A stretch of 64,000 nucleotides of DNA from an uncultured Actinomycetes bacterium (GCA_963706025.1 CAVPLM010000005.1:480001-544000); one strand, 5' to 3'; positions 55,856 through 64,000 are shown, counted from the first letter of the stretch. The notes: a model not told the origin generated them from the letters alone. Translations and numbers: made by a program.

Positions 55856-56548
55856 TCAGATGAAAGGAAGCTCGTCGGTGTCATCTTCGTCGAGTGCATC
55901 GGACCGGCGCAGACGACGGAAGATGGGGTCCTTCAAGATGCTGGGCATGTTCCGCCACAGACACAAGTCCGCTTTGAGGTAGCGTTCCTTGATCTCGGGC
56001 GAGCACTCCAGAGTGCAGGTGAGGCAGAACTCCTCCTCCACCGATATTTTCTCGCGCCCGGGTCGCTCCCCCTCGTCCACACGACGATATGCCTCGAGGA
56101 GGAGGTTCTCGACGTTGATGGAAGGGATCACATTGAACTGGACCGGTCGCGAAGGTACGACGAATCGAAACGTGCCGGTATTCCAGTACATGAGCTGCAT
56201 GATCTGGTCGGCGGTATGACGGTTGACGATCTCGACCAGGACTTCCGGCTCCGCCTCGGCCGCATCAAGAAGAGCCGCCAGTACCGGCTGCTCCTCGTCG
56301 GCCTGGGAGTATCTCATCCAGCATTCCTTCGCCTTGCTCTCTGCGAGAGTCCCTGTAGCCACCAGTTTCGCTCCCAGCGCCTCATCGGAGAGCGGCATGC
56401 TGATGGCGTCGATCCGCCCATTGGAAAGATATATGGCTCCGAACTCCTCGAAATCCTGGATCTCGAGCACTCCCGACCTCCGTTGGGAGGCAAGGAACTG
56501 GAGGATGCTAAAGAGTGGGAACTCCCGGATGTTGCCCCAGAGGATCAT
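55856..56548 (-). CDS. DUF4388 domain protein
   Basis: GNIREFPLFSILQFL..RSGVL..GAIYLSNGRI, WNTGTFRF, LLLEAYRRVDE; Cys-rich tail (CLTCTLEC). Confidence 0.8.
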   Translation of the reverse strand: MILWGNIREFPLFSILQFLASQRRSGVLEIQDFEEFGAIYLSNGRIDAISMPLSDEALGAKLVATGTLAESKAKECWMRYSQADEEQPVLAALLDAAEAEPEVLVEIVNRHTADQIMQLMYWNTGTFRFVVPSRPVQFNVIPSINVENLLLEAYRRVDEGERPGREKISVEEEFCLTCTLECSPEIKERYLKADLCLWRNMPSILKDPIFRRLRRSDALDEDDTDELPFI

Positions 56549-56635
56549 GTCCAGATTCTAACCCAAAGTGCACCGGGGTTGTGGGGTCGACGCGCGTTGC
56601 TAGGCAAACCATCGATCCGGGCTTGCTCAGAAGGC

Positions 56636-56664
56636 TTGACACAACGGGTCCCAGCACCCAAAAT
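56636..56664 (+). promoter_or_regulatory. putative sigmaA promoter of the DUF485-actP operon
   Basis: TTGACA-N17-CAAAAT. Confidence 0.5.
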
Positions 56665-56738
56665 ACCGGGCACCTGTTCACATGAGGCGAAGGGGAAAAC
56701 CGGGTCGGTGACGACCATCACTCAATTGGGGGACGCGC

Positions 56739-57020
56739 ATGCTCCATGAACCAGCGACAGTACACGGGGTAGACGAAGCGGCTGCCTACAAGAAACGCCT
56801 TGGGCTGTGGATGTTGCTCTTCTATAGCGTTCTGTACATCATCTTCATCATCATCAACGTCGTCTGGCCAAAGTCCATGGGCACCATCGTGGTGTACGGG
56901 CTGAACCTCGCGATCGTCTACGGCTTTGCGCTGATCATCATAGCCTTTCTCCTAGCTATCGCCTACAACTGGCTGTGCACCAGGCACGAGAAGTCGTTCG
57001 AAGGCGAGGAGAAGGCCTAG
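56739..57020 (+). CDS. DUF485 (YjcH-like) small membrane protein
   Basis: Two TM helices, GLNLAIVYGF; directly upstream of actP, as in known yjcH-actP pairs. Confidence 0.85.
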   Translation: MLHEPATVHGVDEAAAYKKRLGLWMLLFYSVLYIIFIIINVVWPKSMGTIVVYGLNLAIVYGFALIIIAFLLAIAYNWLCTRHEKSFEGEEKA

Positions 57021-57021
57021 C

Positions 57022-59010
57022 ATGAATACGGTAGAGCCTCTCGCCATCATCATCTTCCTGTTGATCGTCGGCCTGGTCCTCTTCGTCTCTTTCTATACCG
57101 CACGCAGAGCCAGGTCCGCCAGCGGCTACTACGCAGCCGGGGGACGGATACACTGGGGAGTCAACGGTATCGCCTTCGCCGGCGATTACTTGTCTGCGGC
57201 TTCCTTCCTCGGCATCTGCGGTCTTATCGCCGTCTCCGGCTACGACGGGTTTCTCTACTCGATCGGCTACTTGGCCGGCTGGGTGGTCGCCCTGTTCGTC
57301 GTGGCGGAGCCGCTCAGGCGGCTCGGTCGCTACACGTTCACCGACGCTCTCGACGCCAAGTTCAACAAGCGCAGCGTGAAGCTCATGGCCGCGATCGCCA
57401 CGCTTATCGTGTCCATCTTCTACCTCATCCCTCAGATGGTGGGGGCAGGAGTGCTCATCGAGCCGCTCCTGGGCTTCCCTTACTGGGCGGGGGTAGTCTT
57501 GGTCGGCGCGATCGTCATAACCATCGTGGCCACTGCGGGAATGACTTCCACGACCTACGTGCAGTTCATCAAAGGCTCGCTCCTCATCGTCTTCGTCCTC
57601 GTGATCGTGGTGGCACTCTGCATACGCGGTTTTTCCACCGAGCCTGATCAGGGAGGCAGAGTCCCCTTCCATCACTACAAGACCATCACCGCGACGGAGA
57701 CCAACGGCACGATAACTCCGGACGACACCACCTACGAGGTTGTCGGCCAGCAAGACGTAACGGTCAAGGATAAGACCACCACGTTCGTCAAGCTCGACAG
57801 AGACGGGGTCGCCACCTGGTGGAAGATGACCACCGGCGATTCCGGAGTCGCGCTCCACGAGACGCAGGAGGTGGTGATCAAGGAGGACGGGACCAAGTAC
57901 GTCAACGGTGCTCCCGTGACCGACGACAATCAGTTGAGGCAGGTCAGCCACATGAGTCTCATCGCCGGCGAGACATACACCGACGGTGGCGCCGTGAATC
58001 CCTTCAAGTTCCTCGCCCTGATCGGCGATCCTGAGTCCACCATCAACCTATGGAAGAAGGCCGCGTTCGAGGACGGCGGCGACCAGGTGTCTGTGTACTA
58101 CTCGGTGCCTGTCTCGGGCGACACGGTAGTCAAACCGGGTCAATCGTTCAAGCTCGAGGGCTCGGTCCTGGACCGGGTCGACTTCGTCTCCCTCATGATC
58201 GCTCTCTTCCTGGGAACAGCCGCGCTGCCACACATCCTCATACGCTACTACACCGTGCCCAGCCAGAGAGCGGCCCGCAAGTCGACGGTGGTCGCCATCG
58301 CCGCGATCGGCTTTTTCTACATACTCACACTCTTCATGGGCCTCGGGGCCATGACGAGCAACACGGTGAATGTTTTGGACAACAACATGTCGGCGCCGCT
58401 TCTGGCTCGATCGTTCGGGACCTTCCTGTTCGCCATGATCTCGGCCATCGCCTTCGCGACCGTCCTCGGGACCGTGAGCGGCCTGATCATCGCCGCCTCC
58501 GGCGCGGTCGCCCACGATCTCATGGACCGCTTCGGCGGCTTGATCAAAAACGACAAACAGAAAGTGGTCGCAGGACGGGTCGCCGCCTTTGTGGTGGGAG
58601 CCATCGCGATCCTTCTCGGCATAGCGTTCCAGGGCATCAACGTGTCTTTCTTGGTGGGTCTTGCCTTTGCGGTGGCTGCGTCGGCGAACCTGCCCTGCAT
58701 CATCATGATGCTCTTCTGGAAGCGAACTACATCGAAGGGTATGGTCGCGTCCATCATCGTGGGCATCGTGGCTTCGGTGGGCATCATCGTGTTCTCGCCT
58801 ACAGCGTGGGAGCTCTACGGACTCAATCCCGCCGATGCCCCCATCCCTCTCAAGAACCCGGGCATCATCTCCATCCCGCTGAGCTTCATCGCCATATATC
58901 TGGTGTCGAAGTTCACCAAGCCCGACATGATGGAGGAGCACCCGGTGACGGGACAGTACTCTGTTGCGGGGTCTCAGGGAGCTGTCGCGGAGACCGCGCC
59001 GGCCGAATAG
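57022..59010 (+). CDS. actP: cation/acetate symporter (SSS family) with a large extracytoplasmic insertion
   Basis: NGIAFAGDYLSAASFLG, YLIPQMVGAG, GTAALPHILIRYYTVP, AFATVLGTVSGL, AFAVAASANLP. Confidence 0.9.
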   Translation: MNTVEPLAIIIFLLIVGLVLFVSFYTARRARSASGYYAAGGRIHWGVNGIAFAGDYLSAASFLGICGLIAVSGYDGFLYSIGYLAGWVVALFVVAEPLRRLGRYTFTDALDAKFNKRSVKLMAAIATLIVSIFYLIPQMVGAGVLIEPLLGFPYWAGVVLVGAIVITIVATAGMTSTTYVQFIKGSLLIVFVLVIVVALCIRGFSTEPDQGGRVPFHHYKTITATETNGTITPDDTTYEVVGQQDVTVKDKTTTFVKLDRDGVATWWKMTTGDSGVALHETQEVVIKEDGTKYVNGAPVTDDNQLRQVSHMSLIAGETYTDGGAVNPFKFLALIGDPESTINLWKKAAFEDGGDQVSVYYSVPVSGDTVVKPGQSFKLEGSVLDRVDFVSLMIALFLGTAALPHILIRYYTVPSQRAARKSTVVAIAAIGFFYILTLFMGLGAMTSNTVNVLDNNMSAPLLARSFGTFLFAMISAIAFATVLGTVSGLIIAASGAVAHDLMDRFGGLIKNDKQKVVAGRVAAFVVGAIAILLGIAFQGINVSFLVGLAFAVAASANLPCIIMMLFWKRTTSKGMVASIIVGIVASVGIIVFSPTAWELYGLNPADAPIPLKNPGIISIPLSFIAIYLVSKFTKPDMMEEHPVTGQYSVAGSQGAVAETAPAE

Positions 59011-59031
59011 ACCCAGCTTGACGTCTGAAGG

Positions 59032-59071
59032 GAGAGGCCGCCGGATGCGATCCCGCATCCGGCGGCCTCTC
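59032..59071. terminator. 18-bp GC-rich hairpin between convergent actP and satP
   Basis: GAGAGGCCGCCGGATGCG-ATCC-CGCATCCGGCGGCCTCTC perfect inverted repeat. Confidence 0.75.
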
Positions 59072-59093
59072 GACTTCCAGGGAGTGCGCGCTC

Positions 59094-60149
59094 CTAGAAC
59101 ACGTCTTTGGCAGTGAGGGGAGCTCCGGTGTAACCGGCGCTCGCATAGTAGACCGCTCTGTCGAAGAACCTGCCCAGCTCGCGGTTGAGGTCCACCGCCT
59201 TCTGCAGATCCATGGCCGACTCCCATACCCCGTGGGTACGGGCCGACATCCATATCTCCCGTTTCAACAGCAGGATGGCGCTTATCAACTCAGGCAAAGG
59301 CAGTCCCTGGGCGGCTCTTGTCGTCCCGAGCCGGTGGAAGAACTCGCCTATGTCGGCCTCGGTGGGCTTGCCGGTGAAGTACTCGTCCACCTGGGTTAGG
59401 GCGAACTCACCTGCGCCTATCAGTTCGGCATCCGACACCACTCCGTACGAAGGCGTTTGCGGACTGCGCCGCAGGCTGTCCAGCCACAGAGTGGCTATCT
59501 CTTCCCCGTAATCCTGCACGAAGCCCCTCGAAAGCTGGCTGACGGGGCCCAGCGGCAGCAGAACCCGCTTGTAAGTCTCATTGAGTATCTGGGCACAGGC
59601 GGCATAGACCGCCGCAAGTCCGGTGATGATGCCTTCGTAGCCGGCGATCGTCCCCCAGACTGCTCCGCCTCCGAAATCGCGGATGGCGAGAAGGAAGAAA
59701 AGGATGGCCAGGAGGGCGAAGACCACCTGCAGGGCCCGATTGAGCTTGAGGGTGCCTACGAACATGTAGGCCGTGAAGAGCCCCCAGAAAACGAAGTACC
59801 AGGCCAGGGCGGTCTCGCTCGGTTTGGCGGCCGCGGCTGTGTCCGGAAAGATCGACGGGAGAAGCCAGATTCCCGCCAGCGTCAACCAGAACAACCCGTA
59901 TGAAGTGAAGGCCAGGGTCCCGAAGGTGTTGTTCTTCCGCCACTCCATGATCCCGGCGACGATCTGGGCCACACCGCCGTAGAAGATGCCCATGGCCAGG
60001 ATCATGGCGTTCAGCTCATAGAATCCTGCATTGTGGATATTGAGGAGGACGGTCGTGAGGCCGAACCCCATCAGCCCCAACGGAGCGGGGTTGGCGTTAG
60101 TGTCGAGCAGTTTGGTGACCGTTTCGGTCGAGATTAGTCCGTTCGCCAT
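59094..60149 (-). CDS. satP: SatP/YaaH (GPR1/FUN34) acetate channel fused to a C-terminal helical globin-like (RsbRD_N-like) domain
   Basis: [30 protein letters not shown]; about 145-aa extension with [28 protein letters not shown]. Confidence 0.88.
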
Positions 60150-60366
60150 CTACCAAGTACCTCCCATTGTGCCCACACGACCGTGTGCCCGTGATCAGTC
60201 ACCGACCGTCCCACCGCCAGGTTCCGGGCCGGACCGGTCGACACTATACTCGCGACCGGCAGGACTTGTCCACCCGAGTCGGATTTCTTGTAAAATGTTT
60301 TGGCCTCGTCGCGAGATGTGCCGGGGGTAATAAGAGTCCAATCAGAACGACGTCAAGAGAGACACC

Positions 60367-61134
60367 ATGACTGACATCATTCGGGTTGACCTGCACTGCC
60401 ATTCGTCGGCGAGCGACGGAGATCATTCGCCGGGCTACGTAGCCCACCAGTTGGCTACCGCCGGTGTAGTCTGGGCCTCCCTCGCCGATCACAATACGGT
60501 CGGGGGACTGGAGCGTTTCCGAGCGGCCGTCGAGAGACGAGGGATGCGCTATATCCCAGGCGTGGAGATGCATGCCCGGTCGCCCAAAGGGCCCGTGCAC
60601 CTGCTGGGCTATGGGGTCGACCCTGAGAACCAGCCTCTGCTGAGCGCATTACAGATACTGCGTCAACCCTGGCGGACTTCGGCCCGCCAGAGGCTCGCAC
60701 GAGTGTTCTCCCGGGGCAGGAGCGAGACACCAGAGACGGCGACCCGCCCCCCGGACGACGGTGATCCGTCACCCCAACACCAGCCCGACACTGCCGAGTC
60801 CATCCGTCTCATCCACCAGGCGGGAGGACGCGTCCTTCTAGCCCACCCGCTTGCAGGCCTGAAGACGATCGAGCGGCTCGAGGAATACCTGGACTGGCTA
60901 CAACCTCAGGGGCTAGACGGTATCGAGGCCTTCTACAAGTTGTACTTCCGCAGCACACAGCAGGAACTGCTGGAGCTCGCAGAACGCCGTGGCCTGCTGA
61001 CGACCGGTGGCAGCGATTTCCACGGGCTTCACAACCATGATGGAACCAGTCCCGGCGTCGAAATGCCGTTGGAGCAGCTGGAACGCTTTGTGGCAGCGGT
61101 GGGACTCCGACAAGAGCAGGATCTTGTTACCTGA
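60367..61134 (+). CDS. PHP domain phosphoesterase (YciV/TrpH-like)
   Basis: DLHCHSSASDG, DHNT, GVE, HLLGY, AHP, GGSDFHG. Confidence 0.9.
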   Translation: MTDIIRVDLHCHSSASDGDHSPGYVAHQLATAGVVWASLADHNTVGGLERFRAAVERRGMRYIPGVEMHARSPKGPVHLLGYGVDPENQPLLSALQILRQPWRTSARQRLARVFSRGRSETPETATRPPDDGDPSPQHQPDTAESIRLIHQAGGRVLLAHPLAGLKTIERLEEYLDWLQPQGLDGIEAFYKLYFRSTQQELLELAERRGLLTTGGSDFHGLHNHDGTSPGVEMPLEQLERFVAAVGLRQEQDLVT

Positions 61135-61168
61135 GGCGACCACGGTTAGCCGATCCTAAGGGGGAACG

Positions 61169-64000
61169 TTGAGAACCAGCAGAGGGCTGCTGCCCAGACT
61201 CAACCCGCGCAACTGGTCCAGTTTCGCCTTGCGCATAGTGCTGCCGGCGGTCCTGGCCATCGTCCTCTTCATCATCGCCATCTTCCTGATACTGATCCCC
61301 TCGGCCGAGAACCAACTGCTGGAAGGCAAGAAAGCAACTGCCCAGGAACTGACGCGGGCCGCGGTCAGCATCCTGGACGAGTACTATGCCGAGGAAGCGT
61401 CGGGCAGTATGACCAGGGAACAGGCCCAGGAAGAGGCAGCCGCCCGGATCGAGAACCTGAGATACGGTGATGAGGGGAAGGACTACTTCTGGATAACGGA
61501 CACGTATCCCACGATGATCATGCATCCGTACGTTCCAGAGCTGAACGGCCAGGACCTGACGGATTACGAAGACGAGAACGGCAAGAAGATCTTCGTGGAG
61601 TTCGTGAACGCCGTGGAGGACGACGGCTCCGGTTGGGTGGAGTACTACTGGCAGTGGCAAGACGACCCCACCCAGATAGTCCCCAAGATCTCCTACGTGC
61701 AGCTCTTCGAGCCCTGGCAGTGGGTGATCGGTACCGGGATGTACGTCGAGGACGTGAACGCAGCCATAGCGGAGGTGGAGCGAAACCTGATCTACATCTC
61801 GCTGGCGATCGTGGTGGCGGTCGCCCTGCTGCTCCTCTACGGCATCCGTCAAAGCGTCAAGATCGACAGAAAGCGTGCGGTGGCCGAAGAGGGGCTCAGG
61901 GAGTCACACGAAAAATACCGGGCCTTGGTGGAGGCGGCCACTGAGGGCCTCCTTATGACCCTCGAAGGCAAGTGCGCCTATTCGAATCAACCGTTGCTCG
62001 ATATGCTCGGCTACAAGGCCGAGGAGCTCGCCGAGACGGATGTGACCCAGCTGTTCTACCGGGAGACGGCCGACGATCGCGAAGCGCTGGCCAACATCGA
62101 GGCCCTCTCGAAAGGCGAGACAGTCCCCGAGACCTTCGAAGCTCGCTTCCGGCACAAGGACGGGCGCCCGGTCGAAGTCCTGCTGACGCCGGCGCCCATC
62201 TCGTTGGCGGGGAGAGAGGGCTTCATCCTCATCGCCCGCGGCTTGACCGGGCAGAAGGCCATCGAGGCGGCGCTCGATGATACCAGGCGCCAGTTCAGGA
62301 CCATGTCCGATGCCCTCAGCTTGGGAGTGTTCCGCAGCACCTGGGGCCGCAAAGCGACGCTCTTGGAAGCGAACCCGGCCATGCGAAACATCCTTCGCCT
62401 TCCTGTGTCCGTTGAACTGGCCGGCGCCGACTGGTTAGACCGCATCGTCGACCCAGCTGAACGTGAGGCCCTGGTTGCCCGACTGAACAGCGACAAGGCG
62501 GTGCAGGATTACCAGCTGGGACTCCGGCGTGAGGACGGAGGAAGAGTGGATGTGTCGTTGTTCGCCGTGCTGGTGGATGACGACAGCGGTGAACCACTTT
62601 ATTGCGACGGCATCTTCGAAGACATCACCCAGAAGAGAAAGGGCGCGGAGGAACGGGAGGCGCTGATCGCGCAACTACAGACGTCACTGTTCTTCCTGCA
62701 GGAGCCCATCACCCAGGCCGTGACACCGGCCGTGTCGGTGGAGATCGCCCAGACCGTATCCCGCGCCGCGGTCCTTATGACCAAGAACCGGGCCGGCGCG
62801 GTGTTCGTCAACGGTCCTGACGGAGAGCTCATGGGGATCGCGACCGACCATGATTTCCGTGAACGCGTGGTGGCTGAAGGTATTTCTCCAGAGGCCCCGA
62901 TGAGTTCGATCATGACCGCTCCCGTTGCCTCCATATCGTCCCAGGCGCCGATCTATGAAGCGCTTCTTCGCATGCAGGAAAGGAACGTGGATCACCTGGC
63001 GGTAATGGATGAGAGCGGCAAGCTTGTGGGCATAGTCCGTCTTCGCGACTTGGTCCAGTATCAGCGGTCTTCCTCGGTCGTCATCACCGACTCGATCCGG
63101 CGGGCGCGCTCGATAGACGACATCACCGAAGCCCACGCCAAGCTGCCCGAACTGGTCAAGGCCGTGGTCGACTCAGGAGCCGCCACCCGCTATGTCAACC
63201 GCATCATCTCCGGTGTTTCCGACGGGGTGGTCCAGCGGCTCGTGGCGATGGCGATCGATAGACTGGGACCCGCCCCGGCCCGCTTCGCCTTCCTGGCGCT
63301 CGGCAGCGAAGGCCGGGAGGAGCAGACGCTGCTTACCGACCAGGACAATGCGCTCCTGTACGAGGATCCACCGGCTGAGAGAGCCAAGGAGACCTCAGAA
63401 TACTTCCTGGCTCTGGGGACACTGGTGTGCGACTGGCTTGCTGAGGTGGGCTACTCCTATTGCGACGGTGGCGTCATGGCCAAGAACCCCCGATGGAACT
63501 TGCCCCGCTCGGTCTGGCGTCAGCAGTTCTCCCACTGGATCCACAATGCGGACCCACAGGAACTACTTGAACTCAACATGCTCTTCGACTTCCGTTGCGT
63601 ACATGGCGAGCAGCAACTCGCCCGCGAGTTGCGCGCGTGGGTCTTCGACCAAATGGAAGCCTATCCGCTCTTCTACCTGCACTTCGCTCAGAACGCCTTG
63701 CTGTACAAGCCGCCTCTGAGCCTGTTGGGTAATCTCCAGACCACCTCTTCGGATGAAGGCGTCAAGGCCCTCAGCCTCAAAGAGGCACTGATGCCGGTGG
63801 TGAACTCCGCCCGGCTCTATTCCCTGAGACATCGCATCGACTCCACCAACACTCTGGATAGGATCTCCGAGTTGCGGGACCGCGGGGTCCTGAGTCGCGA
63901 GTCCTACGAAGAGATGGCGCCGGACTACGAAACGCTCATGCGCATCAGGCTCCGCAGGCAGGCGGTCGCGATCGGCGAGAACCGCAAACCCAGCAACCTC
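61169..64000 (+). CDS. membrane sensor nucleotidyltransferase: TM-sCache_2-TM-PAS-PAS-CBS pair-DUF294-DUF294_C (runs off the window end)
   Basis: Manual translation from TTG 61169 (AAGGGGGA RBS) is open to the window end: LRYGDEGKDYFWI..MHPY..WVIGTGMYVEDV (Cache), two PAS/PAC, CBS pair, GSEGREEQTLLTDQDNAL, CDGGVMAKNPRW, LFDFR. Confidence 0.9.
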   Translation, partial: MRTSRGLLPRLNPRNWSSFALRIVLPAVLAIVLFIIAIFLILIPSAENQLLEGKKATAQELTRAAVSILDEYYAEEASGSMTREQAQEEAAARIENLRYGDEGKDYFWITDTYPTMIMHPYVPELNGQDLTDYEDENGKKIFVEFVNAVEDDGSGWVEYYWQWQDDPTQIVPKISYVQLFEPWQWVIGTGMYVEDVNAAIAEVERNLIYISLAIVVAVALLLLYGIRQSVKIDRKRAVAEEGLRESHEKYRALVEAATEGLLMTLEGKCAYSNQPLLDMLGYKAEELAETDVTQLFYRETADDREALANIEALSKGETVPETFEARFRHKDGRPVEVLLTPAPISLAGREGFILIARGLTGQKAIEAALDDTRRQFRTMSDALSLGVFRSTWGRKATLLEANPAMRNILRLPVSVELAGADWLDRIVDPAEREALVARLNSDKAVQDYQLGLRREDGGRVDVSLFAVLVDDDSGEPLYCDGIFEDITQKRKGAEEREALIAQLQTSLFFLQEPITQAVTPAVSVEIAQTVSRAAVLMTKNRAGAVFVNGPDGELMGIATDHDFRERVVAEGISPEAPMSSIMTAPVASISSQAPIYEALLRMQERNVDHLAVMDESGKLVGIVRLRDLVQYQRSSSVVITDSIRRARSIDDITEAHAKLPELVKAVVDSGAATRYVNRIISGVSDGVVQRLVAMAIDRLGPAPARFAFLALGSEGREEQTLLTDQDNALLYEDPPAERAKETSEYFLALGTLVCDWLAEVGYSYCDGGVMAKNPRWNLPRSVWRQQFSHWIHNADPQELLELNMLFDFRCVHGEQQLARELRAWVFDQMEAYPLFYLHFAQNALLYKPPLSLLGNLQTTSSDEGVKALSLKEALMPVVNSARLYSLRHRIDSTNTLDRISELRDRGVLSRESYEEMAPDYETLMRIRLRRQAVAIGENRKPSNL

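Follow-up and report, generated by a model that had tools for sequence, protein, structure and literature searches.

The closest described relatives of the locus reported here are DUF294 (COG2905) genes of Pseudomonas. PP_0353, which encodes an RNase T-like protein, and PP_0354, whose product combines a cyclic nucleotide (cNMP)-binding domain, two CBS domains and a nucleotidyltransferase (NTase) domain, are the genes most dependent on the acetate regulator MxtR/ErdR (10.64898/2026.09.07.749794), PA3232-PA3235 are induced about 16-fold on propionate (PMC9765439), and Pflu5625, another cNMP-CBS-NTase gene, is under CrbS/R control (PMC5715377). That DUF294 proteins might modify other proteins is offered as speculation in the first of these sources, in analogy to the uridylylation of PII, and is also voiced speculatively in the third. 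This study focused on a five-gene locus in a 64,000-nucleotide stretch of DNA from an uncultured Actinomycetes bacterium (GCA_963706025.1, CAVPLM010000005.1:480001-544000; G000:C5:480001-544000 in our numbering), the whole of which is called the window. It occupies positions 56,739 to 64,000, and in it a DUF294 NTase forms the output end of a transmembrane receptor with a predicted carboxylate sensor (Cache) domain, preceded by a gene for a PHP-family phosphoesterase and accompanied by transporter genes. The literature searches made returned no paper on a Cache-type DUF294 receptor, on a PHP or Metallophos partner of DUF294, or on a PHP-DUF294 fusion.

We propose that the products of the PHP and Cache-PAS-PAS-CBS-DUF294 genes work together as a single unit, whose genomic surroundings connect it with the uptake of monocarboxylates (through DUF485-ActP and, in the window, SatP as well). 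The unit would be a carboxylate-gated write/erase module, in which a GlnE/DrrA-like NTase would put a nucleoside monophosphate (NMP) on a hydroxyl group and the PHP enzyme would remove it; we give this proposal an even chance. Genes were called by listing of open reading frames (ORFs) and by profile scans (Pfam, NCBIfam), and the two genes at the center of the proposal are made up as follows (TM, transmembrane segment).

60367-61134, + strand: predicted PHP-family phosphoesterase of the TrpH/YciV (RNase AM)/Cv1693 type, 255 residues (PF02811, NCBIfam)
61169-64000 and on beyond the window end, + strand: receptor, TM-sCache_2-TM-PAS-PAS-CBS-CBS-DUF294-DUF294_C (profile scans)
61322-61783, + strand: periplasmic sCache_2 domain, receptor residues 52-205 (PF17200, E 3e-42)
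61910-62638, + strand: two cytoplasmic PAS domains, receptor residues 248-357 and 394-490 (PAS_4) (PF00989, PF13426, PF08448)
62723-63061, + strand: CBS pair, receptor residues ~519-631 (PF00571, 74 bits, in two stretches; NCBIfam CBS-containing models)
63140-63559, + strand: DUF294 Pol-beta-type NTase core, residues 658-797 (PF03445, E 1.4e-45)
63668-64000 (window end), + strand: DUF294_C helical 'substrate-binding' domain, residues 834-976 (PF10335, E 2.7e-36 for the full protein)

The receptor has 983 residues in the genome (L002:5170-8121), 944 of them inside the window, and ends at window-equivalent position 64120; the PF03445 scan of Actinomycetota genomes described below placed the DUF294 core at the same position (C5:543140-543559). 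A preliminary description of the locus, made from the sequence alone, had named all five genes, including a Cache-PAS-PAS-CBS-DUF294 protein of more than 940 residues; each was found where it had been placed, and Pfam bore out the domains of the receptor. Its 'divergently transcribed pair' needs rewording, since the PHP and receptor genes are co-directional, with a gap of 34 nucleotides (nt), and it is as a pair that they diverge from satP (217-nt gap).

The coupling of the PHP gene to the receptor gene was followed by scanning an alignment of the PHP subfamily against one genome per GTDB species, which gave 78 loci on which the window proteins were placed by tblastn. A Cache(-DUF294) gene lay directly downstream of PHP in 36 of these, among them all 33 loci with a PHP identity of at least 38%, and the other 42 (29-36% PHP identity, mostly Chloroflexota) represented generic TrpH genes without DUF294. 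Ten of the 36 linked loci lie outside Actinomycetota, in Verrucomicrobiota, Lentisphaerota, Bacteroidota, Spirochaetota, Planctomycetota, Bacillota and one unplaced bacterium, while the 26 from Actinomycetota have flanks as in the window, with ArgRS-TrkA-RlmH-DUF4388 on one side and ABC-Crp-Hcp on the other. Fusion was also frequent. Among 39 longer PHP relatives, 34 carry PHP, Cache, PAS, CBS and DUF294 in a single chain of 955-1274 residues, one carries PHP, Cache and PAS only, and four are of a PHP-NusB type; a single in-frame PHP-receptor ORF was found at nine of 13 PHP-type metagenome loci, three of which were read by Pfam as PHP-sCache_2-PAS-CBS-DUF294-DUF294_C. In a 71-row tree, the PHP-linked NTase domains formed one clade (15 rows, six phyla; support of 100 in the SH-aLRT, an approximate likelihood ratio test), separate from the other DUF294 domains, with the monophyly holding against non-PHP rows that came from Actinomycetota only; the clade includes one locus in which PHP lies 3.4 kb away on the opposite strand. 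Co-occurrence of PHP with Cache-DUF294 proteins in other genomes, which the preliminary description had named as a test of its proposal, extends by adjacency to at least six phyla, with fusion in addition. Because of this cross-phylum adjacency and the single-chain fusions, the predicted functional coupling of PHP and receptor is about as well supported as comparative genomics allows, and the natural PHP-NTase fusions show that the two activities belong together.

By sequence, the PHP protein is classed as a trinuclear-metal phosphoesterase of the TrpH/YciV (RNase AM)/Cv1693 type. The Pfam match is marginal (PF02811, 26.5 bits, just over the cut-off at 26.4), the best NCBIfam models are 3',5'-nucleoside bisphosphate phosphatase (109 bits, cut-off 400) and RNase RNM (83 bits, cut-off 375), and the closest solved sequences are 3e0f, 2yb1 (Cv1693), 9etk and 7ug9 (5'-3' exoribonuclease), with E-values of 1e-21 to 2e-12. 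Across 21 members of the subfamily, there is no variation at H10, D17, H42, E67, H78, H160, D217 or H219, and hardly any at H12; matched by eye, this His/Asp/Glu set corresponds to the metal ligands of RNase AM (PMC9410882). Since the scores fall far below the NCBIfam equivalog cut-offs, the protein is assigned to a distinct subfamily, and a tight one, with about 100 clusters at 174 bits or more and then a gap down to the generic TrpH proteins, which score at most 134 bits. Two arginines, R107 and R112, are nearly invariant in an insertion region, placed by sequence and not by a structure-based alignment; the 5'-phosphate pocket of RNase AM is formed by Arg107, Arg110 and Arg141 (PMC9410882). 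A complex prediction for the NTase domain with PHP scored 0.00 and, having been run without controls, counts neither for nor against binding.

The NTase end of the receptor lies well above the Pfam cut-offs (PF03445, 155 bits against 21; PF10335, 125 bits against 22.5). Its G-S...D-x-D motif is conserved in 41 NTase domains, with G67, S68, D79 and D162 invariant and D81 nearly so (alignment numbering), and catalytic motifs are invariant in NTase and PHP alike. A search of PDB sequences with the NTase region gave nothing meaningful (best E 0.23). An AlphaFold2 (AF2) model of receptor residues 646-983 (mean confidence, pLDDT, 93.2) gave Foldseek matches at E≤1e-3 to DrrA and two GlnE domains only (E 8.6e-9 to 1.3e-6), and VIA-align superposed the model on one GlnE domain, DrrA and the other GlnE domain with Z scores of 26.0, 25.7 and 24.7, respectively, over 292, 298 and 291 residues (root-mean-square deviation 2.7-3.6), the next full-length match being an aminoglycoside NTase at Z 8.4. 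The GlnD/GlnE-like fold that had been ascribed to DUF294 is thus, by both methods, GlnE/DrrA-like over the entire length of the model.

At the other end of the receptor, the sCache_2 domain (PF17200, 145 bits) is located between two hydrophobic segments, read by eye at residues ~19-44 and ~207-226. It is 40-50% identical to two domains of solved structure, 4k08 (Adeh_3718; E 2e-37) and 5g4y (PscD; E 5e-37), the former crystallised with acetate bound and the latter known to bind glycolate, acetate, propionate and pyruvate via Tyr90, His103, Tyr143 and Lys156, with Phe126 lining the pocket (PMC5062169). All five of these PscD residues were checked and all are identical in the window domain, as mapped by hand on the 5g4y alignment (chain index + 9 gives PscD numbering). 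The domain is probably a sensor of acetate or other C2/C3 carboxylates outside the cell, in line with the frequent binding of short-chain carboxylates by sCache_2 domains. The CBS pair stands immediately N-terminal to the NTase, and the cNMP-binding domain commonly described at the N-terminus of DUF294 proteins (PF00027) gave no match in the receptor, its place being taken by TM-sCache_2-TM-PAS-PAS.

Partners of DUF294 genes were also counted in two sets of loci chosen without reference to PHP: Set B, comprising 60 loci out of 68 that matched PF03445 when 401 Actinomycetota genomes were scanned (58 of these genomes had a match), and Set C, comprising 80 metagenome loci drawn with a 15-row alignment of the NTase clade. 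Counts used tblastn seeds and frame-true ORF bounds, with neighbours checked by Pfam. Of the 59 loci in Set B that gave an NTase match, 15 had an RNase_T/DEDDh gene directly downstream, one had PHP as the partner, and 41 had none; in the remaining two, the next gene downstream was co-directional and encoded an AP_endonuc_2 TIM barrel, with a sodium:solute symporter family (SSF) transporter alongside. The 37 Cache-type loci of Set C had PHP in 13 cases (nine fused in frame), a calcineurin-like Metallophos gene in 12 (adjacent, same strand, upstream or downstream), a convergent AP_endonuc_2 gene in two and no partner in 10, four of which are incomplete, and at the 43 non-Cache loci there were eight RNase_T genes and 35 without a partner (20 incomplete). 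The DEDDh partners and actP linkage that the preliminary description had stated for other DUF294 genes are real, both in the surveyed loci and in Pseudomonas (PMC5715377, 10.64898/2026.09.07.749794). A DEDDh-DUF294 fusion was sought among nine longer relatives of one DEDDh partner, and none of these carried DUF294, which is weak evidence. The Metallophos neighbours match the YfcE phosphodiesterase weakly, and the best match of the AP_endonuc_2 neighbours, two of four of which are convergent, is to the CbiR phosphodiesterase (42-62 bits against a cut-off of 105); because this match is weak, the AP-type partner is regarded as tentative. The overall pattern is of one NTase family paired with three to four unrelated metal-dependent phosphoesterase superfamilies, and the simplest explanation is that the partner provides a generic phosphoester-hydrolysing step on something that the NTase makes. 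That PHP is replaced by unrelated phosphoesterases points to a role in hydrolysing an NTase-made or related phosphoester, and not to DNA or RNA housekeeping.

Several further arrangements were seen at DUF294 loci. In one Actinomycetota family (f19; L095, L097, L102, L103 and L104), the gene divergent from DUF294 encodes an APP1_cat phosphatidate-phosphatase domain (E ~1e-50), a further phosphoesterase-type neighbour observed within that family only. Short DUF294 proteins of 476 and 346 residues, apparently without the long sensor region, occur in operon-like arrays of SSF transporter, DUF294 and AP_endonuc_2 genes (L101:5602-7870 and L138:5652-9393, the former from the window's own taxonomic family). 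A histidine kinase with an sCache_2 domain follows a Cache-DUF294 and Metallophos pair (L149:4616-6082), and that locus would have two carboxylate-type sensors with different outputs. Lastly, at a distance of 1.5 kb from another DUF294 gene, and co-directional with it, there is a gene for a 680-residue protein with PAS and RNase_T exonuclease domains (L133:4413-6455), a sensor-fused version of the DEDDh partner.

The link to monocarboxylate uptake comes from the remaining three genes of the cluster.

56739-57020, + strand: DUF485 (YjcH-like) small membrane protein, 93 residues (PF04341, E 1.1e-9)
57022-59010, + strand: sodium:solute symporter, ActP/MctC monocarboxylate type, 662 residues (PF00474, E 8e-73)
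59094-60149, - strand: SatP/AceTr protein with an extra C-terminal domain, 351 residues (NF038013, PF01184)
59535-60149, - strand: SatP/AceTr acetate channel core, residues 1-205 (NF038013, 260 bits; PF01184, E 8e-38)
59094-59534, - strand: sensor-globin-like tail of SatP, residues 206-351, as predicted from a weak RsbRD_N match, relatives and fold

The DUF485 stop codon is 1 nt ahead of the ActP start, and the PF04341 and PF00474 matches bear out the DUF485-ActP pair of the preliminary description. Homologues of both genes are present at 34 of the 36 PHP-type genome loci and, in the metagenome set with its many short loci, at 21 of the 37 of Cache type. Profile matches place the symporter in the monocarboxylate branch of the SSF, where it stands out by a large insertion: NCBIfam scores of 343-438 bits, led by MctC (438) and ActP (417), stay below the equivalog cut-offs of 670-1099, and the ActP and MctC models match in two stretches that skip residues ~208-364. 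The insertion of ~170 residues (residues ~205-385, window 57634-58176) is beta-rich and rich in Thr, Asp and Val, and may be an extracytoplasmic loop domain; the idea that it is a second copy of the SatP tail was rejected on composition (beta-rich versus all-helical), with no alignment behind that decision.

Residues 20-199 of the SatP protein match NF038013 (AceTr_1) with 260 bits, the cut-off being 50, and its extra C-terminal domain of ~146 residues, which the preliminary description had also remarked on, is predicted to be sensor-globin-like (RsbRD_N/HisK_N-type). The tail's own RsbRD_N match is below the cut-off (19.1 versus 24.3 bits, E 0.002), and its relatives, which form 356 representative clusters (E≤1e-3) and are for the most part stand-alone proteins 145-180 residues long, match RsbRD_N, HisK_N and Rsbr_N, reaching the Pfam cut-off. 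The AF2 model is all-helical (pLDDT 87.8), and its top fold matches are pXO1-118, pXO2-61, globin-coupled sensors and RsbR-N (template modelling (TM) score 0.60-0.71, probability 1.00), with Foldseek E-values of 6e-3 or weaker and none at or below 1e-3. As no histidine is invariant in the family alignment (42 rows) and the top fold matches are non-haem, the tail is presumably a non-haem domain. A globin-like domain of this kind is also found at the C-terminus of NUDIX hydrolases, in nine of 28 relatives scanned (P0134, P0136, P0147, P0148, P0153, P0159, P0182, P0204 and P0251), and there is one methyltransferase-NUDIX-globin protein of 594 residues. Linkage of the SatP-tail fusion to Cache-DUF294, the other co-occurrence named as a test in the preliminary description, is confined to a single syntenic lineage of Actinomycetota (26 of 26 loci, against none of the 10 loci from other phyla), and a plain SatP gene stands beside Cache-DUF294 in a few metagenome loci (L151, L153).

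In the write/erase module proposed here, the periplasmic sCache_2 domain would bind acetate or another C2/C3 carboxylate, and the signal would cross the membrane and the two PAS domains, with the CBS pair adding a cytoplasmic input, probably an adenine nucleotide. Together these inputs would set the GlnE/DrrA-type NTase, which would transfer NMP via a phosphodiester onto a hydroxyl, most likely on a protein, and PHP would hydrolyse the adduct and so reset the switch. A protein acceptor is more likely in view of the NTase fold. The most plausible targets would be found in the co-encoded uptake machinery (ActP, DUF485 or the SatP tail), which supplies the leading, though unproven, candidates, or else among acetate-assimilation enzymes with genes at other loci. 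We infer, and do not observe, the identity of the ligand, the direction of regulation, the antagonism of NTase and PHP on one adduct, and a protein acceptor and which protein this would be; sensing of adenylate charge by the CBS domains, the nucleotide used and a role of PHP as the reverser would be of the same presumptive kind. Of the writer/eraser switch as first outlined, the parts that stand are those drawn from the linkage and fusion of PHP, the GlnE/DrrA fold and the Cache residues, and the part that does not is the linkage to the SatP tail, found in one lineage only.

A number of points weigh against this module. To our knowledge, no DUF294 protein has a known activity, substrate or nucleotide. 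Three of the partner families (RNase T-like, TrpH/RNase AM/Cv1693 and YfcE-like) have characterised relatives, and the substrates of these are nucleotides or nucleic acids rather than protein adducts; R107 and R112 of PHP, in the region of the RNase AM pocket, would fit a nucleotide or oligonucleotide better than Tyr-AMP. The likeness of the modelled NTase fold to GlnE and DrrA reflects shared ancestry and is no proof of a protein acceptor. By the seeds used, there was no adjacent phosphoesterase at 10 of 37 Cache-type loci and at most non-Cache DUF294 loci, and the AP_endonuc_2 neighbours may be unrelated genes of the sugar-isomerase type. The 26 Actinomycetota loci share synteny across the whole region, so that they count as one lineage. 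In Pseudomonas, the Pflu5625 mutant was without a phenotype (PMC5715377), PP_0353 and PP_0354 gave mild growth defects only, and DUF294/COG2905 proteins were still without known activity as of the September 2026 preprint (10.64898/2026.09.07.749794).

Some of these points could be accommodated by a module that makes a nucleotide signal, which is the main alternative but one that we consider unlikely on the whole. Here DUF294 would respond to external acetate by making a small nucleotide, for instance a di- or oligonucleotide in linear or cyclic form or a conjugate of an NMP with a metabolite. This product would be read, possibly, by the SatP globin tail and degraded by the PHP, DEDDh, Metallophos or AP-type partner, much as in cyclase-phosphodiesterase pairs. 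Characterised relatives of the partners do hydrolyse nucleotides or short oligonucleotides (Cv1693, the 5'-3' exoribonuclease, RNase AM (PMC9410882), the DEDDh 3'-5' exonuclease models and YfcE), the conserved arginines of PHP are in the insertion region, which in RNase AM holds the 5'-phosphate pocket, and the SatP-tail family is repeatedly fused to NUDIX hydrolases (9/28 scanned). Set against this, the NTase fold matches protein AMPylases (Z 25-26), no cGAS/CD-NTase, OAS or diguanylate-cyclase-like fold was among the matches listed, and no dedicated effector gene is kept in the cluster across phyla, only transporters.

Two other explanations are less parsimonious than either the write/erase module or a nucleotide signal. 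Remodelling of RNA ends, with the NTase adding untemplated nucleotides and an exonuclease trimming them in order to tune acetate-uptake transcripts, is improbable: two of the partner families are of RNA-exonuclease types (RNase T-like DEDDh and RNase AM-like PHP), and the likeness of PP_0353 to RNase T has been noted (10.64898/2026.09.07.749794), but no CCA-adding enzyme or poly(A) polymerase was matched at E≤1e-3 or Z≥8, terminal uridylyltransferases reached Foldseek probabilities of 0.11-0.13, the enzyme is membrane-tethered, and RNA exonuclease activity is not known for partners of the Metallophos and AP types. Slightly less probable still is that the partner is itself the target, as in MNT-HEPN systems, with the NTase nucleotidylylating and controlling the neighbouring phosphoesterase as the real output enzyme. 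DUF294_C belongs to the HEPN-like KNTase_C clan (PMC3710099), the AMPylated HEPN toxin and MNT-HEPN structures match the C-terminal domain (Z 7.5-8.5), and fusion with PHP would put the target in cis; however, the NTase would need to recognise four unrelated folds, and the HEPN-type matches cover the helical C-terminal domain only, within a score range that is common for helical bundles. A chance neighbourhood, in which PHP is a housekeeping TrpH-like enzyme that merely lies beside the receptor gene, could appeal to the seven other PHP-domain matches in the source genome and to the marginal Pfam score, but is very improbable and is contradicted by adjacency in at least six phyla, 34 fused protein clusters, nine in-frame fused loci and the distinctness of the PHP subfamily from generic TrpH.

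Beyond the receptor gene, the genome was read past the window end and has genes for a convergent ABC ATPase, Fur, Crp and a hybrid-cluster protein; neither of the genes that had been anticipated there, acs or one for a DEDDh enzyme, follows the receptor. An Acs-like match lies ~470 kb distant on the same contig, and the best acetyl-CoA synthetase match in the genome (G000:C5:10696-12572) is split over two adjacent reading frames (726 + 274 bits), perhaps through a frameshift or misassembly. The gene that comes directly before the cluster encodes a DUF4388 protein (window 55856-56548, - strand) and keeps this position in 20 of 30 Actinomycetota loci checked; synteny alone may explain that. A promoter and terminator scan of 56400-61400 gave no signal (2 + 2 sites, against 1.2 + 2.7 expected). 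Metatranscriptome contigs from two runs of one study contain pieces identical to the window at 56919-57089, which spans the DUF485/ActP junction, and at 59379-59529 and 59824-60060, both in satP, as well as a piece with one difference at 63813-64000, and further pieces derive from relatives; such contig pieces say nothing on transcription, its level or operon structure, and no meaning attaches to the parts left uncovered.

DUF294/COG2905 proteins are common, being present in 58 of the 401 sampled Actinomycetota genomes. They also occur in Pseudomonas and rank there among the strongest MxtR/ErdR targets. It is conceivable, if doubtful, that they are a widespread and so far unrecognised class of signal-gated protein NMPylases, each with an interchangeable de-NMPylase (DEDDh, PHP, calcineurin-like or EndoIV-like), and that the Cache-type members are transceptor-like switches by which external acetate sets the NMPylation of ActP, DUF485 or SatP. 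Were the acceptor part of a transporter, the uptake of short-chain fatty acids would be controlled post-translationally in a new way. The PHP-Cache-DUF294 locus extends the previously described, uncharacterised DUF294-exonuclease module, and with cheap, defined candidates for the external ligand (acetate, propionate and pyruvate), it makes a long-standing puzzle directly testable.

The precise relationship of the locus to known systems is one of partial likeness in each case. The Pseudomonas pair (PP_0354/PP_0353, PA3233/PA3232 and Pflu5625, under CrbS/R, that is, MxtR/ErdR, control and next to actP-yjcH) shares the CBS-DUF294-DUF294_C output, the linkage to DUF485-ActP and a dedicated phosphoesterase gene adjoining the NTase, but its input is a cytoplasmic cNMP-binding domain in place of a transmembrane sCache_2 with two PAS domains, its partner is a DEDDh enzyme and not a TrpH-type PHP that is upstream or, elsewhere, fused, and the window adds the SatP-globin fusion. 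The sCache_2 chemoreceptor domains of PscD, McpP and Adeh_3718 are 40-50% identical to that of the receptor and have the carboxylate-binding Tyr/His/Tyr/Lys and Phe in common with it, but their output is the signalling domain of a methyl-accepting chemotaxis protein, whereas that of the receptor is a predicted NTase. TrpH/YciV (RNase AM) and Cv1693, the closest solved sequences to PHP, share its fold and full set of trinuclear-metal ligands; the window PHP differs in an insertion region that is shorter, partly low-complexity and variable, and in belonging to a subfamily defined by linkage to Cache-DUF294.

Among protein-modifying enzymes, the DrrA/SidM AMPylase of Legionella is the best Foldseek match to the NTase (E 8.6e-9, TM score 0.64; VIA-align Z 25.7), at ~11-14% identity, but is a secreted effector that lacks sensor domains and acts on Rab GTPases of the host. 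Its mark is removed by a separate de-AMPylase, SidD, and the DrrA/SidD pair sets the example of AMP being taken off a protein by a hydrolase that is separate from the transferase and unrelated to it in fold. GlnE shares the NTase and the helical substrate-binding domain (Z 24.7-26.0), and GlnD has sensor domains that control a transferase coupled to a removing activity, which resides in its HD domain; the fused PHP-DUF294 proteins resemble its transferase and hydrolase in a single chain. Sequence identity is ~12%, and their remover is an HD domain or a second NTase domain, in contrast to the PHP, Metallophos or DEDDh partners of DUF294 loci. If the doubtful reading of DUF294 proteins as signal-gated protein NMPylases is correct, the module would be a new reversible post-translational modification system in bacteria and an acetate counterpart of GlnD-PII-AmtB, differing from it in that the window cluster has no PII-like gene and that its sensor is extracytoplasmic.

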